Shown here piece by piece: positions 29,012 to 57,327 of a stretch of DNA of 64,000 bases. Under the pieces are notes generated by a model. The model had not been told where the DNA came from. It searched no databases and worked only from the letters and a program-made list of their open reading frames with translations. The stretch is from positions 1 to 64,000 of the IMG/VR virus record IMGVR_UViG_3300035425_000025; one strand, given 5' to 3'. Position numbers and translations under genes: made by a program. The DNA comes from a virus. Lineage: Duplodnaviria > Caudoviricetes. Numbering within the stretch: position 1 is the first letter of the stretch; each line of letters opens with the position of its first letter.

Positions 29012-29272
29012 ATGAAATTATATGAATGCATAGTAGATGATGGGCAAAACGTATTCAAGACCTTGACAGCTTCTAAAAGTAAAAAAGAACTTCTTTCAGT
29101 TTATGGCGGTAATGGTTCTTTTGAAAAAATTACCGATGTAACAAAAGATTATTTTACCAATGAATCCTCTGATAAATTAGTTTCTGATTTACAAAAATGT
29201 GGTTGGGGTAAAGGTGAAGTTGAATTAATAAGGGCATTATTAGAAGAACATATAGACAAATTAAATAAATAA
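29012..29272 (+). CDS. First early hypothetical protein
   Basis: 86 aa, AGGCAGGT RBS downstream of the promoter. Confidence 0.75.
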   Translation: MKLYECIVDDGQNVFKTLTASKSKKELLSVYGGNGSFEKITDVTKDYFTNESSDKLVSDLQKCGWGKGEVELIRALLEEHIDKLNK

Positions 29273-29332
29273 ATCCCCTGAAGAGTCTTTGAAAATTAAG
29301 ACGAAACTACCCAAAACAAGGGTAGTCGGGAT
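29273..29332 (+). ncRNA. Hammerhead ribozyme, type I
   Basis: ATCCC-CTGAAGA-GTCTT(loop)AAGAC-GAAA-CTACCC(loop)GGGTAG-TC-GGGAT: complete core and three stems; predicted GUC cleavage after 29327. Confidence 0.9.
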
Positions 29333-29659: not shown

Positions 29660-29706
29660 CAAAAGGTGTAAAGTCTATTGAACTATTAAGGCTTTACACC
29701 TTTTTA
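29660..29706 (+). terminator. Intrinsic terminator
   Basis: AAAAGGTGTAAAG/CTTTACACCTTTT. Confidence 0.75.
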
Positions 29707-29773
29707 ATGTAGAAATAATCTGGTATAATGAAATAATCTAAATCAGTATATCAGGTTATAGGAAGGTGATCAC

Positions 29774-29986
29774 ATGGCAATAAAAACAAATAAAGAGTTA
29801 TCACAGGCAATAGAAGAGATAATAGAAAATAATGGTATTAAAAAAATATGGTTATCTGAAAAGGTGGGTATAGCTAATCAAAATCTAAATAGATTACTTT
29901 CTAAAAAAAGTTTATCACTTGACGATGCTAACAAAATTCTAAAGGCACTTGGATATCATGCAGAAATAATAATCGAAAAAGATTAA
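29774..29986 (+). CDS. XRE-family HTH regulator
   Basis: WLSEKVGIANQNLNRLLSKK..SLDDANKIL.ALG. Confidence 0.85.
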   Translation: MAIKTNKELSQAIEEIIENNGIKKIWLSEKVGIANQNLNRLLSKKSLSLDDANKILKALGYHAEIIIEKD

Positions 29987-30004
29987 AAAAATTATCAAAA
30001 GTGA

Positions 30005-30033
30005 TTGACAAGTAAAGGCAAATAGTCTATAAT
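30005..30033 (+). promoter_or_regulatory. Perfect sigma-A promoter
   Basis: TTGACA-17 nt-TATAAT. Confidence 0.85.
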
Positions 30034-30039
30034 AATACT

Positions 30040-31025
30040 TGTAAGGAACACAAGGGAAATCAAAAATCGGTATCACGGCAGCATCAATAAGTCCAGGAGC
30101 GATAAAAGAAAAATCCCCGTTCCAAACGAAACAGGGAAATTTCGGAAAAGCGTATAAAACACTTTTACCCTAGACAAGTAAAGTGTAACGCATTTCTGAT
30201 AATCTGTCAATCGGCAGATATTTCCCAAAACAAAGTAACTATTAACGTCCTGTAAAGTGGAGTGCTAACAGGATCGTAACTAAGGCAAAGCAACAAGAGA
30301 TTGCAAACGAGGTTAGAGAAAAGATAATTGATCATCTAATCATCCCAATAGGGAAAACGTGAAAAGAGATACCAGCGTAAAAATGGACTATGGTTCCGGC
30401 CATCTGACTACATCGTGGAAAACAGGGGATACAAACCTGTTTAGACGTAGCAGCGAATGCCATCGCAAACCGGAAAAACTACATTATGTGTCTGAAAATG
30501 ACAAGAGTTTGTCAAGTGCTGATTCTGAACTTGTGATCTGTGATAGCGTGGTGCTAGTAGCGGAAGTGAGAGACAGTGACTTTCACATTGGAATTAGCAT
30601 ATGTCTGTATCTTAGCGGTGCAGTAGGTAGGGACACGGTGAAAAAGGGCGTATGATAAACCATTAAATAGACAGTTATTGTAAACCATGGAAAGAGCCGA
30701 GTATAAAAGAATCGGTGATTATCGGTGCAGATAATTAATTTTAGAACGGATAAAACCTTAGAGAGTGTCAAGTAACAATGGCACTCTCTTCATTATTAAA
30801 AGCGGTCAACTGCTTTTCAAAAAGGAATGTGATGTTCAAGCGAAAAATAAGAAGCAACAAAAGCAATACATAGTTTTATTATTTACCATACCCATAAAAA
30901 CAGAATCAAACGTGAGGCGGTGCGGAAAGCTGGTAAACCAACGGGTAACAACCGGGACATAGCCATTAAAGCCGGAAGCATTTAGCCATATCCCTTGAAA
31001 AGTCTCTTTTGTGGGCATGGATAAG
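30040..31025 (+). ncRNA. Candidate large ornate ncRNA (about 1 kb)
   Basis: Follows a consensus promoter, no convincing CDS, more than 15 hairpins and domain-closing pairs (GGGAAAT/ATTTCCC, TCCGG/CCGGA, TGCTGATTC/GAATTAGCA). Confidence 0.6.
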
Positions 31026-31094
31026 TAATAAAAAGGTTTTAAATGATTCAATAATCTGTTATAATTAGAATATCAATAGAAAAGTTGGTGTAAA

Positions 31095-31409
31095 ATGATA
31101 ACGATAGAACAGTTAAAGGCAATAAATAAACCTGAAAACATAGCAGTAACAGAACATGCTAGAATCCGTCTTTATGAACGAAATATTAGCATTGATGATA
31201 TTGTAAATGGTATAAATACAGGCGAAATTATAAAACAGTATCCAGACGATAAACCACTAGCAAGTTGTTTGGTATTGGGATTTTCTGTTAAATCACAGTA
31301 TATTCATATAGTAGTAAGTTGTGATACAGATTTTATATATCTTATAACTGCATATTTTCCCGATCCTGATATGTGGGAAAGTGATTTTAAGACAAGAAAG
31401 GGGCGTTAA
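31095..31409 (+). CDS. DUF4258 (RelE-like) toxin
   Basis: TEHARIRLYERNI...GEIIKQYPDDKP..SCLVLG...IHIVV...ITAY.PD..W. Confidence 0.8.
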   Translation: MITIEQLKAINKPENIAVTEHARIRLYERNISIDDIVNGINTGEIIKQYPDDKPLASCLVLGFSVKSQYIHIVVSCDTDFIYLITAYFPDPDMWESDFKTRKGR

Positions 31410-31411
31410 TT

Positions 31412-31639
31412 ATGGTATGTATGGAATGCGGAGCAAAAGCCGAAAAGGGATATACAACAAGCGTAACAGATTTAGGGAACCGCCTTTTAATCGTGCGGAA
31501 TGTCCCTTGTTATAAGTGTACAGAATGTAATGAGGTTATCTATACAGGGGATGTTATTAAAAGATTGGAGCAGATCACAGAACAGGCGAAACAATTTACA
31601 CAGGAAATTTCTATTGTAAATTATAGTAGTGCTGCATGA
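31412..31639 (+). CDS. YgiT/MqsA-type zinc-finger antitoxin
   Basis: CMECG...VRNVPCYKCTECNE. Confidence 0.8.
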   Translation: MVCMECGAKAEKGYTTSVTDLGNRLLIVRNVPCYKCTECNEVIYTGDVIKRLEQITEQAKQFTQEISIVNYSSAA

Positions 31640-33055: not shown

Positions 33056-33130
33056 CTTGTTATAATGCAGCCTGAAAGCCTGATCAACTTTCAGACAGTC
33101 CACAGTCTGTAAAATGCAGATGGTAACAAG
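33056..33130 (+). ncRNA. Twister ribozyme, type P1
   Basis: P1 CTTGTTA/TAACAAG, T^AA, P2 TGC/GCA, AGC, P3, P4 ACAG/CTGT with loop TCCACAGT; T1 pseudoknot CA/TG; one conserved loop A is a C. Confidence 0.75.
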
Positions 33131-33185
33131 AAAATAATAGAGAAATAGTTATTGCTACATAGACAATCAAAGAAAGGTTAAAACG

Positions 33186-45760: not shown

Positions 45761-46621
45761 ATGGGAAATAAAACAAAGCAAATAGGTAAAACAGAAGTGT
45801 ATCCGTTCTGGGATATGGAAGATATTAAGAACATGATGGACTACTTTAAGATGAAAGAGATGTGGCATTGGTATTTAGTATTTAACTTTGGATTGCTTCT
45901 GGGGAGACGCATAAGTGACACACTTTCGCTAAAATGGTCTGATTTTTTCTATGAAAATAGAAGATTGAAGGATGAGACAGATATAGTGGAATGGAAAACA
46001 GGGAAGACTGTCAGACTATATATTTGTCCAGCTTGTCAAGAAGCATTGAAATTATATATTGATAAAACTGGCACAGACCCGATGGATAATTATAACGATT
46101 TTGTTTATGGAACTGCTCAAATGTCACAGTTATTAGAAAATAAAGAAGAGTATCCTGAAGAAGATTGGAAGGAACTAATGATGAAAGCAATACAAAGTCA
46201 TGCTGCAGCATTTAGAAAACAGTTTAAGTTAGCAGCAGATGCCTGTAATATACAATATGCGACTTCGACTCATAGTCTTAGGAAAAATTTTGGATACTGG
46301 TCAGTTAAACTTCATCCATATGATGTGACAACTGTAGACAAATTGCAAGGGATATTTTCACATTCTGATCGCAATACAACTCTTCGCTATATCGGAATTT
46401 CAAGAGAAGATGAAAAGAAATTATATTGTGATATGGGAGATTTTATCACTGATATTTCTAACGGTAAAAAGCCTGTAATAAAGAATAGTCCTGTATTGGC
46501 AATAAAATCAGAAGACGCAAGAGAATTATTTAGCAAGTGCTTTGATATGGCAAAAGACGGAGAAGAGAAGTTTGAAGTTATAAACAGAATTCTTGGTATG
46601 GCAGAGAAATGTATGGTATAA
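45761..46621 (+). CDS. Tyrosine recombinase/integrase
   Basis: LGRRISDTLSLKW, STHSLRKNFG, FSHSD.NTT.RYIG; no arm-binding N-domain. Confidence 0.9.
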   Translation: MGNKTKQIGKTEVYPFWDMEDIKNMMDYFKMKEMWHWYLVFNFGLLLGRRISDTLSLKWSDFFYENRRLKDETDIVEWKTGKTVRLYICPACQEALKLYIDKTGTDPMDNYNDFVYGTAQMSQLLENKEEYPEEDWKELMMKAIQSHAAAFRKQFKLAADACNIQYATSTHSLRKNFGYWSVKLHPYDVTTVDKLQGIFSHSDRNTTLRYIGISREDEKKLYCDMGDFITDISNGKKPVIKNSPVLAIKSEDARELFSKCFDMAKDGEEKFEVINRILGMAEKCMV

Positions 46622-46797
46622 TATGGGAGGACAATTCTATGACAAAATTGGATTATAGACAATATCTTATTAACAAACAAAAAGATATATCGGAAGAAGG
46701 AAAAAATGTTAGAGAGCCTATGGCAGCAATTACATATCGATGTCTTATAAATCTTTTAGAAGATGTTTTGGAAAAATTTGATAGTATAAAAGATTGA
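46609..46797 (+). CDS. Hypothetical protein
   Basis: GGGAGG RBS before MTKLD. Confidence 0.6.
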   Translation: MYGIIWEDNSMTKLDYRQYLINKQKDISEEGKNVREPMAAITYRCLINLLEDVLEKFDSIKD

Positions 46798-47624
46798 TTT
46801 TATTGGAGGATATTATGGGAAAGAAAAAAATAGAAAAAGAATTGACTAAAGAGGAAAAATTACAACAGGAAAAGGAAAGAGGAATAGAGCAAATACAGAT
46901 GGAACTGCCTTTTATAAATACGCCATCATATTTTTTTAATGTGGGTGATAAAGTAAGTTATGGTGCGATTAAAGAAAGTGTTGTTGAAGATATTTTGTAT
47001 GATGGAAAAGTATATGTTTTAAAGTGCGTTGCGACTAATAATAATTATGGACGTCCTTATGATTATGAAACTTACCGTGTTACATCATGGACAAATGTAA
47101 GACCGATTTGTCCTGATAATGATACTAATTTCTCTGAAAACCAGGATGTACGATTGGACTACTATAACTCAACTATAGAAAGTCTGTTGAGAAGGAATTA
47201 TGTTTTTGGAATAGACTTTGATCCAGATTATCAGAGAGGATATGTTTGGGATGTGAAGGACAAGGAAATGTTATTAGATAGCATTTTTAAAAATATAGAT
47301 ATTGGAAAGTTTGTATTGATTCATATATCAGATGAAGAATGGCATAAGAGAGGATTAAGTTATGAAATACTTGATGGAAAGCAGCGTTTAAGCACTCTCA
47401 TTGAGTTTTATGAGAACAAATTAGCATACAAAGGGAAGTATTATAATGATTTGAGTGGAATGGATAAGAGGACTTTTACAGAACATCAAGTTGCTGTCGC
47501 AGAAGTAAGGGAAACGGACAAGAAGACAGTATTAAAATATTTCCTGATGCTCAACAGAACTGGAAAATCTATGGATGAATCGCATCTGTTAGAAGTAGAA
47601 AAGATGCTGGATAGTATGAAATAG
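46794..47624 (+). CDS. DUF262 (GmrSD N-terminal/ParB-fold) protein
   Basis: FDPDYQRGYVW, EILDGKQRL. Confidence 0.8.
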   Translation: MILLEDIMGKKKIEKELTKEEKLQQEKERGIEQIQMELPFINTPSYFFNVGDKVSYGAIKESVVEDILYDGKVYVLKCVATNNNYGRPYDYETYRVTSWTNVRPICPDNDTNFSENQDVRLDYYNSTIESLLRRNYVFGIDFDPDYQRGYVWDVKDKEMLLDSIFKNIDIGKFVLIHISDEEWHKRGLSYEILDGKQRLSTLIEFYENKLAYKGKYYNDLSGMDKRTFTEHQVAVAEVRETDKKTVLKYFLMLNRTGKSMDESHLLEVEKMLDSMK

Positions 47625-56316: not shown

Positions 56317-57327
56317 ATGGAAAATACTAATATATTAGTTATAGGCAATGGATTTGATTTATATCATGAATTAAAAACAAGTTACACAGATTTTGTCAGA
56401 TTTTGTGAAGAAATATTAAAGACAGAAAAAGGAACCAAGGGCAGAAAGTGGGCTATAAGTAATTCTTTTGTAAATTGTTTTATAAAGGTGGCTTCCGAAA
56501 ATCAAAAGTGGATTGATTGTGAGAGAGAAATAGAAAAAATTGTAACTATGTTTTTGAAAATAATGCATGATAGAAATGTTTTTGATATCATTCCTCATTA
56601 TATAGATAAGGACAATACTACGCTTGAACCGTATGAGTTTGATATACTAAGATTAATGAATAGGTTTTGTGAAATGTCAAATATACAGAAAATAAAGATA
56701 CGAGATGATTACTTTAAAACTTATGAGGGAATTAATAAAAAATTAGTGATGGAAAAACTAAAAGATGATTTAAATGATTTAATTAATCTGTTTAAGTATT
56801 ATTTGGAGGAGAAAGTAATAAACCAACCAGTTAAAAAGTTTTCTAAACAAATAGAAAAAATAAACCCGGATTATGTTATAAATTTTAATTATACTAATAC
56901 ATGTGAAAAATATGGTGTAAATAAGCAGGACATATGTTATATACATGGATCAGTACAGGATAATAATATGGTGTTGGGAATAAGAGATATTGATGAAAAG
57001 GATATAAATTCCATATATTTTAAAAAATTTTTTCAAAGGATACAAAAGCATACAGATACAATTCAATGGAATAGGTTCGGAGAAAATCGAAGTCATACTG
57101 AAACAACGAGAGAAGCTACTACATATTTTTTTGGTCATTCTTTAAGTAATACAGATGGTGATATAATACGAAGTATATTTGAAAACTCATGTAAAATAAT
57201 CATCTTTCATTTATATGGGAAAAAAGATTATGAAGAAAAGGTTATTAATCTTATAGACACACTGGGAAAAGAAAATGTTATACAAGGAATATATTCTGGG
57301 CGTATTGAACTTGTTCCAATAAAATAA
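56317..57327 (+). CDS. AbiH-family abortive-infection protein
   Basis: ILVIGNGFDL.H.LKTSY.DF, INFNYT, YIHG, FFGHSL..TD. Confidence 0.85.
   Translation: MENTNILVIGNGFDLYHELKTSYTDFVRFCEEILKTEKGTKGRKWAISNSFVNCFIKVASENQKWIDCEREIEKIVTMFLKIMHDRNVFDIIPHYIDKDNTTLEPYEFDILRLMNRFCEMSNIQKIKIRDDYFKTYEGINKKLVMEKLKDDLNDLINLFKYYLEEKVINQPVKKFSKQIEKINPDYVINFNYTNTCEKYGVNKQDICYIHGSVQDNNMVLGIRDIDEKDINSIYFKKFFQRIQKHTDTIQWNRFGENRSHTETTREATTYFFGHSLSNTDGDIIRSIFENSCKIIIFHLYGKKDYEEKVINLIDTLGKENVIQGIYSGRIELVPIK

Follow-up and report, generated by a model that had tools for sequence, protein, structure and literature searches.

What does a phage keep in about 1 kb of DNA that holds no recognisable gene? We examined this question in the virus record IMGVR_UViG_3300035425_000025 (Caudoviricetes), of which the first 64 kb of 74 kb in IMG/VR were analysed (the window, to which all positions below refer). 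The stretch in question occupies 30005-31034, at the switch of gene orientation from leftward to rightward. An earlier note, made from the sequence alone, had proposed that it encodes one large ornate RNA, possibly of a new class. Comparison with related loci (L002, L004 and so on; G001 is the seed genome) indicates that the unit is conserved, equipped with a promoter and non-coding, with an internal convergent antisense gene. Its layout, as read from this comparison, is one of four modules: a leader, the convergent antisense gene within that leader, a body of about 450 nt and a 3′ domain of about 160 nt. Thus, the proposal of a conserved, structured and uncatalogued RNA stands, and the single fold of about 1 kb is replaced by a modular arrangement. 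The parts of the unit are as follows.

30005-30033, plus strand: sense promoter TTGACA-17-TATAAT, a 12/12 match, with transcription start predicted at about 30039-30041
30040-30240, plus strand: leader, which starts with the Shine-Dalgarno (SD)-like GUAAGGAA and contains a covarying hairpin (30159-30186) and one copy of a 35-nt module
30210-30104, minus strand: predicted antisense RNA gene, with -35 TTGACA (30210-05), -10 TACACT (30187-82), a 17-bp spacer and a start at about 30175
30245-30691, plus strand: conserved RNA body of about 447 nt, folded into 13 or more helices and one pseudoknot
30760-30789, plus strand: 11-bp hairpin GAGAGTGTCA/TGGCACTCTC followed by UCAUUAUUAA, terminator-like with a weak U-tract; kept in L002, L091 and L089
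30875-31034, plus strand: 3′ domain of about 160 nt, with a long closing stem around AAAACAGAAUCAAACGUGAG, GGGACAUA and AUAUCCCUUGAAAA
31038-31065, plus strand: next promoter, TTTAAA-16-TATAAT with TG, which drives a DUF4258 toxin-like gene and a zinc-ribbon gene

The non-coding unit

The earlier note had described a perfect sigma-A promoter followed by no credible coding sequence (CDS), and both statements hold. In nine loci, a promoter matching at 10-12 of 12 positions precedes the body motif by 240-350 nt. Across 29990-31095, each of the six frames contains 12-31 stops, with TAA, TAG and TGA all represented. Because every frame carries stops of all three kinds, no recoding opens a gene, and a recoded CDS was ruled out; the five phage tRNAs are ordinary and include no suppressor. 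The raised GC that had been noticed is also real (0.38-0.45 in the unit versus 0.27-0.33 in the flanks). Against shuffled sequences, the minimum free energy has a z-score of -4.6 on the plus strand versus -2.7 on the minus strand.

The 98-aa open reading frame (ORF) in the unit is confined to the window and its 91%-identical relative. Across members, the ORF that begins at a conserved GUG runs for 3, 11, 23, 40-45 or 98 codons. The resulting peptides are unrelated past the first eight residues and are not hydrophobic, and the shared nucleotides fall in differing frames. No Pfam match was found for the 98-aa product, and L004 has no plus-strand ORF longer than 41 aa in the corresponding stretch. 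The L092 and L078 leaders contain ORFs of 89-101 aa that appear spurious, as they are alike only where they overlap the conserved RNA. The earlier note had asked whether homologues conserve the 98-aa ORF or the base pairing. They keep the pairing, and because the length, frame and peptide of the ORF differ among them, this comparison favors an RNA.

The cmscan search that had been suggested matched no known Rfam family: nothing reached gathering score, and on the plus strand of 29700-31300 nothing appeared at E<=10. In seven homologous loci searched at E<=1, no ornate-RNA, intron or countertranscript family was matched. The sole match with E<0.1, to L10_leader (minus strand, 30099-30232), only picks up the antisense terminator. 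A group I or group II intron was also rejected, given the lack of an Rfam match, the unit's own promoter and the complete flanking genes (a 70-aa HTH gene with its stop and the DUF4258 gene with its own start). BLAST of the region against 50,697 GenBank phages matched nothing.

The folded body and its relatives

The strongest evidence for an RNA comes from the body. Helices were read by eye from segmented sequences and with RNAalifold, and the members were realigned with two covariance models (R1 and R2); slid pairing registers and 500 shuffles served as controls. The elements of the body, all on the plus strand, are the following.

30247-74, plus strand: helix P1
30285-304, plus strand: helix P2
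30305-30, plus strand: invariant joint AAACGAGGU..UAAUUG
30344-53, plus strand: helix P4
30372-86, plus strand: helix P5
30390-403, plus strand: helix P6
30396-30473, plus strand: pseudoknot, in which CCGG of the P6 loop (30396-99) pairs with CCGG of AAACCGGAA (30470-73)
30404-14/30444-53, plus strand: helix P7
30421-41, plus strand: helix P8
30454-65, plus strand: helix P9
30513-33, plus strand: helix P11
30537-64, plus strand: helix P12
30566-76/about 30678-90, plus strand: long-range helix P14 (GUG..ACAG with UUGU..CAU), which closes the 3′ subdomain
30616-38, plus strand: helix P13

In the 5′ third of the body (P1, P2, P4 and P5), 90.6% of the cells are paired versus 26-39% in slid registers, 11 of 24 pairs are double-changed and none of the 500 shuffles scored as high. 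The middle (P6, the pseudoknot, P7, P8 and P9) has 97.4% paired cells versus 26-46% in slid registers, with changes at 17 of 27 pairs (0/500 shuffles), and the 3′ part (P11, P12 and P14) has 98.6% versus 26-46%, with changes at 9 of 18 pairs (0/500 shuffles). In total, compensatory changes occur at 37 of the 69 tested pairs. P7, for example, appears in different lineages as CUAC/GUAG, CAAC/GUUG, UCAC/GUGA, CUGC/GCAG and CCAC/GUGG, and P6 as AUGG/CCAU, GUGU/ACAC and AUGU/ACAU, and P8 accommodates a 120-nt insertion in L086. The pseudoknot changes on both sides together: elsewhere CUGG pairs with AAACCAGAA (CCAG), 97.9% of its cells are paired and one pair goes from C-G to U-A in step. Between the helices lie near-invariant loops and joints (AAGUGGNGUGCU, GCGUAAAAA, AURCCA, CUGAUUCUGAA, GAGAGAC and UGUAAACC). 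Two further elements do not enter the counts. The P3 hairpin (after UAAUUG) was left out because its registers shift, although it forms in every member, and P10 (CAA/UUG) is uninformative because it never varies. As the compensatory changes extend across the whole body, we infer selection on RNA structure, and conclude from the alignments that the body is a conserved, pseudoknotted RNA of about 450 nt that belongs to an uncatalogued family.

Most of the helices named in the earlier note reappear in this fold. TCCTGT/ACAGGA is P1, AAACAGG/CCTGTTT is P8 and ACACTTT/AAAGTGT is a leader hairpin, all with covariation in homologues; TCCGG/CCGGA covaries as well, and its real nature is that of the pseudoknot. 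GGGAAAT/ATTTCCC closes the leader, with one compensatory variant in L005. Two other proposed pairings did not survive the comparison. The first arm of TGCTGATTC/GAATTAGCA lies at 30527-35 rather than at 30497, and the pairing is absent from the L092 and L094 groups; TCTGTATC/GGTGCAGA is not kept in other lineages. We also considered a contact between the P11 loop UGAUUCUG and CAGAAUCA in the 3′ domain (30899-30906). The two are perfect complements, but L004 alters both sides without pairing, and the contact was rejected; L092/L078 have no CAGAAUCA-type site within the DNA examined.

The search for relatives started from homologues of the upstream 70-aa HTH gene, which occur in nine viral loci (42-100% identity), some of which carry homologues of the non-coding stretch by BLAST and hidden Markov model searches. 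The invariant 26-nt joint AAACGAGGTNANAGAAANNNTAATTG, used as a pattern, retrieved 10 viral, 8 metagenomic and 3 genomic stretches. Removal of duplicates and of three chance matches to the search pattern (L077, L085 and L088) left about 14 distinct body homologues from IMG/VR, metagenomes and three genomes. A second pattern, GGTTCCGGCCATCTG, gave mostly chance matches and one new homologue, and a third, CTGATTCTGAA..GAGAGAC, gave 54 stretches with L126, a continuation of L080, as the sole new homologous locus. Later pattern scans added no further viral members. The named carriers, which include mouse-gut Lachnospiraceae, are an uncultured Lachnospiraceae metagenome-assembled genome (MAG), a second MAG with the label Tenericutes and the isolate 'Bacterium 1xD42-87'. 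The RNA is rare: the exact pattern matched three times among 185,579 species represented by one genome each, and a DNA search of the family of G001 was positive for 1 of 401 genomes, G001 itself.

The body segment (30240-30700) is common to all members at 72-100% identity, and 30750-31033 is kept at 85-93% in some relatives. The leader, of about 200 nt, is shared with one subgroup only; L004, L092/L078/L086 and L005 have unrelated sequence in its place. The body is single-copy in each of five genomes or records searched. A 15-kb viral contig (also represented as L018) carries two copies (L092:3760-4340 and L078:807-1356(-)), in tandem and about 1 kb apart, with a promoter and a small gene between them. 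A promoter and an XRE HTH gene precede the first copy. The second, preceded by a 60-aa RHH-like gene and a 12/12 promoter, does not have the UGUAAACC end motif in its usual position. In the Lachnospiraceae MAG (L093:5697-6055), unrelated sequence takes over from the body past P10, and only 46 aa remain of the HTH gene upstream; the copy probably belongs to a decaying prophage.

Leader, antisense gene and 3′ region

The convergent antisense gene in the leader was missing from the earlier note. Its predicted terminator, about 60 nt past the promoter, comprises a 10-bp GC-rich stem (30137-30114) and a U-tract (30113-30104, UUUUUCUUUU), and the predicted RNA is about 70 nt long with two hairpins. 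A minus-strand promoter (10-12/12) and a minus-strand terminator, 55-70 nt apart, were detected in all nine loci (9/9) with a known sense promoter. Both are also present in L009 and L010, where the RNA that follows gives no match to model R1. Counted from the sense start, the antisense 3′ end falls at +17 to +27 in short leaders and at about +70 to +105 in the window group. The antisense segment folds at -28.9 kcal/mol on the minus strand (z -5.6) versus -14.3 on the plus strand, which folds more weakly because G-U pairs of the minus strand turn into C-A mismatches. The L004 antisense, which is unrelated in sequence, takes the same two-hairpin shape.

Four unrelated leader types (window, L004, L092 and L005) have three things in common, namely the start motif, the antisense gene and ..UCCCAAAAC ahead of the body. 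In the window, the leader is closed by pairing of GGGAAAU (30054-60) with AUUUCCC (30220-26), and in L005 the leader ends pair as AAGGAAAU/AUUUCCUU. No plus-strand terminator was detected in 30040-30245. We also noted a leader module of about 35 nt that ends in GGCAGYRUCAAUAAG (window 30061-30095; L002:775-1058). Its copy number is zero in L089, one in the window and two in each of L002, L094, L091 and L082.

All leaders open with the SD-like GU(U)AAGGRAA, with no start codon behind it. STAB-SD elements are 5′ stabilisers of Bacillus mRNAs such as cryIIIA. The leaders resemble them in having a GGA-rich SD-like motif within the first 10-20 nt and no start codon, which is kept in all leader types. 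Unlike STAB-SD, the same promoter/SD module drives a real gene in L007, where a promoter and the GUUAAAGGAG start motif (L007:4244-4300) precede a second HTH paralogue. Because L007 uses the same promoter and motif for a gene, the RNA unit may have inherited its SD-like start from a promoter cassette common to accessory genes.

Downstream of the body, the hairpin at 30760-89 is a possible weak terminator of the body transcript, and in L004 no terminator-like hairpin was seen by eye between the body and the 3′ domain. Depending on where transcription ends, the predicted RNA would be either about 750 nt or about 1 kb long. The fold of the 3′ domain is conserved, with compensatory changes at 12 of 47 predicted pairs, and L004 forms the closing stem with a different sequence. 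In L094 and L082, insertions of about 400 nt part the body from the 3′ domain. At L006:2638-2800, after a 279-aa ORF, part of the 3′ domain recurs (AAAACAGAAUCAAAC ... long closing stem). As the 5′ half of the body (R1) has no match in L006, the 3′ domain is an independent module.

Gene neighborhood and possible function

The genes that flank the unit are the following.

29774-29986, plus strand: 70-aa XRE/Cro-type HTH gene (Pfam HTH_26, 2.3e-6, and HTH_3), directly upstream of the unit
31095-31409, plus strand: DUF4258 toxin-like gene
31412-31639, plus strand: zinc-ribbon gene

A small XRE-type HTH gene, of one of two subfamilies, lies upstream in nearly every locus, and in the window, L002, L004, L092, L005 and L094 it ends tens of bases before the RNA promoter. 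An RHH-like gene takes this place before the second copy, in L078. Downstream, the genes differ by locus: DUF4258 and zinc-ribbon genes in the window and L091, a HigB/HigA-like pair in L004 and L089, and an RHH gene or others elsewhere. ArdA is encoded 2.2 kb to the right of the unit. The earlier note had proposed early expression of the RNA beside anti-defence genes. The unit does lie in the accessory early region, with a conserved strong promoter of its own and with toxin-antitoxin genes and ArdA close by. Farther along the rightward accessory region are GmrSD_N-like, AbiH-like and tyrosine-recombinase genes (46794-47624, 56317-57327 and 45761-46621), which are of the defence type although carried by a phage, and nuclease-like genes. 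A 919-aa leftward protein has an RdRP-family match, which would be expected of a YonO-like polymerase and fits an SPbeta-like label. The host element is best explained as an SPbeta-like temperate phage of gut Clostridia.

In three HTH-bearing loci (L008, L010 and L011), the same consensus promoter precedes 1-1.5 kb that have no plus-strand ORFs of at least 50 aa and no match to R1. Including L009, which has no plus-strand ORFs of at least 52 aa, the R1-negative stretches measure 0.8-1.5 kb (L008:4235-5195, L010:4221-5379, L009:4221-5014 and L011:4218-5768). From their sequence context, these four look like alternative RNA bodies.

How might such a unit work? We suggest that the region is a 'non-coding moron', an accessory unit that stands alone and is non-coding. 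The conserved sigma-A promoter would start a transcript without a conserved ORF, a convergent antisense RNA of about 70 nt would overlap the leader of about 200 nt, and the SD-like 5′ motif without a start codon could recruit 30S subunits as a 5′ stabiliser. The folded body would then act in trans, as a protein-binding scaffold or as a decoy against a host factor. The facing promoters and the antisense RNA would together set the amount of full-length RNA, through transcriptional interference, an RNA duplex or both. Such a duplex might open the leader-closing helix or trigger decay, and the RNA could thus be low in one phage state and high in the other.

We have about even confidence that the body is a product acting in trans on a host or phage factor, with its level gated by the antisense and convergent-promoter pair. 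The body is read in this way because it is more complex than a regulatory leader needs, because different genes follow it in different phages, because it is duplicated in one phage and because other non-coding stretches replace it behind the same control module. Swapping behind the same control module is typical of accessory or anti-defence cassettes. A more specific version, which we consider possible but rather doubtful, is that the exchangeable bodies are RNA effectors, that is, aptamer-like decoys or scaffolds that neutralise host immune sensors or nucleases and are swapped like anti-defence genes, with the antisense as a switch between lysogeny and the lytic state. If true, this would add an RNA layer to the accessory and anti-defence repertoire of phages.

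Several points weigh against a product acting in trans. The sequence set is small, and because six members form one close subgroup, many of the covarying cells trace to few mutational events. No gene co-occurs with the body except the small upstream HTH gene. The U-tract at 30760-89 is poor and no strong terminator precedes the next promoter; because this terminator is weak, read-through into the downstream genes, and hence a role in cis, is conceivable. Moreover, the transcript ends, the existence of the antisense RNA and the action in trans are all deduced from sequence.

Of the alternatives, a cis-acting leader fares best, and we consider it unlikely. Here, the unit would be a long 5′ regulatory region of the rightward early genes, operating by antisense attenuation, as a prgQ/Anti-Q-type switch or by RNA-polymerase antitermination. 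The unit does head a run of plus-strand genes, the leader does contain an antisense RNA gene, and the stretch from the body to the next gene in the window has only the weak U-tract of 30760-89; in L004, no terminator-like hairpin was seen by eye between the body and the 3′ domain. As in pCF10 prgQ/Anti-Q and pIP501/pT181, there are facing promoters (about 135 bp apart), a predicted small countertranscript on the leader and a Firmicute mobile element, and a facing-promoter countertranscript layout is known for switch-like behavior. Unlike in those systems, there is no Rfam match to a countertranscript RNA and no intrinsic attenuator after the antisense target: the sense hairpin at 30201-18 is followed by AUUUCCC, and the L004 leader is without any U-run. 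The leader is followed instead by about 800 nt that have no conserved ORF and include the folded 450-nt RNA, and the latter, with its pseudoknot and at least 13 covarying helices, far exceeds what known attenuators or put/EAR-type elements require. The variable downstream genes have promoters of their own (10-12/12), and the tandem bodies of L092/L078 are separated by a promoter and a small gene.

It is considerably less probable that the sense RNA is a ColE1-like replication primer, which would form a persistent RNA-DNA hybrid to prime replication of the phage or prophage, with the antisense controlling initiation as RNA I acts on RNA II. The likeness to ColE1 lies in the strong promoter, the long structured non-coding sense RNA (500-750 nt here) and the short, convergent, multi-hairpin antisense to the 5′-proximal leader; the ColE1 antisense has three hairpins in 108 nt, compared with two in about 70 nt. 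The transcript is also purine-rich, and the unit lies 2.5 kb from the point where the cumulative GC skew turns and gene orientation diverges. However, the skew turn coincides with the switch in gene orientation and so does not mark an origin by itself. Further, the 10 ORFs scanned to the right include no replication genes, neither iterons nor an AT-rich unwinding element were noticed past the body, and there was no match to Rfam RNAI or any plasmid countertranscript family. Also unlike ColE1, the unit is phage-borne, one phage has two tandem bodies and related phages carry sequences unmatched to the body in the same place.

Decayed or cryptic coding DNA, either a pseudogene remnant or a type I toxin-antitoxin locus with an antisense-repressed toxin ORF, is very improbable: the sense/antisense pair is typical of type I loci and most members have a short ORF from the conserved GUG, but that ORF spans 3-98 codons with neither frame nor peptide conserved, is not hydrophobic and has no Pfam match at its 98-aa length, and the body-wide compensatory changes indicate selection on RNA structure.

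We also compared the unit with other large RNAs. To our knowledge, few bacterial or phage non-coding RNAs longer than 400 nt with complex conserved folds have been described (OLE, GOLLD, ROOL, HEARO and a few others), and we know of no phage-borne RNA of that set with an established function. Like ROOL, GOLLD and OLE, the RNA reported here is several hundred nt long and non-coding, and combines conserved loops with numerous covarying helices; carriage by phages is a feature it shares with ROOL and GOLLD. ROOL and GOLLD are borne by Firmicutes phages and prophages, and their biochemical function is unknown (Weinberg et al. 2017, PMC5737381; cryo-EM structures, bioRxiv 10.1101/2024.12.08.627333). 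Unlike those of ROOL, GOLLD and OLE, the present loci match none of the corresponding models (E<=10 for the window, E<=1 for seven loci), are not beside tRNA genes, have a dedicated leader with an antisense gene and are much rarer. A literature search returned no description of this RNA. A catalogue of structured RNAs from IMG/VR lists about 8,500 candidates, with motifs of only 29-151 nt (PMC10690425), among which pieces of the body RNA could be present. By its sequence features, the RNA would represent a new class of large phage RNA with an antisense gate. It offers handles that other large RNAs lack, namely a defined promoter, a built-in antisense regulator, a body that can be duplicated or replaced and a cultured lysogen (the mouse-gut isolate behind L094). 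Given the promoter, the antisense regulator, the modular layout and the lysogen, its function is genetically testable.

A scan of the whole window at Rfam gathering scores gave five tRNAs only, and no twister ribozyme at 33056-33185, upstream of ardA. Sub-threshold hammerhead matches were detected after the first early gene (29260-29332, plus strand; RAGATH-1-hammerhead, 25.9 bits, E 0.022; Hammerhead_1, 20.2 bits, E 0.019). A RAGATH-1-hammerhead match of 31.5 bits, also below the gathering score, occurs at L005:1340-1422. Based on these matches, a hammerhead ribozyme after the first early gene is plausible.

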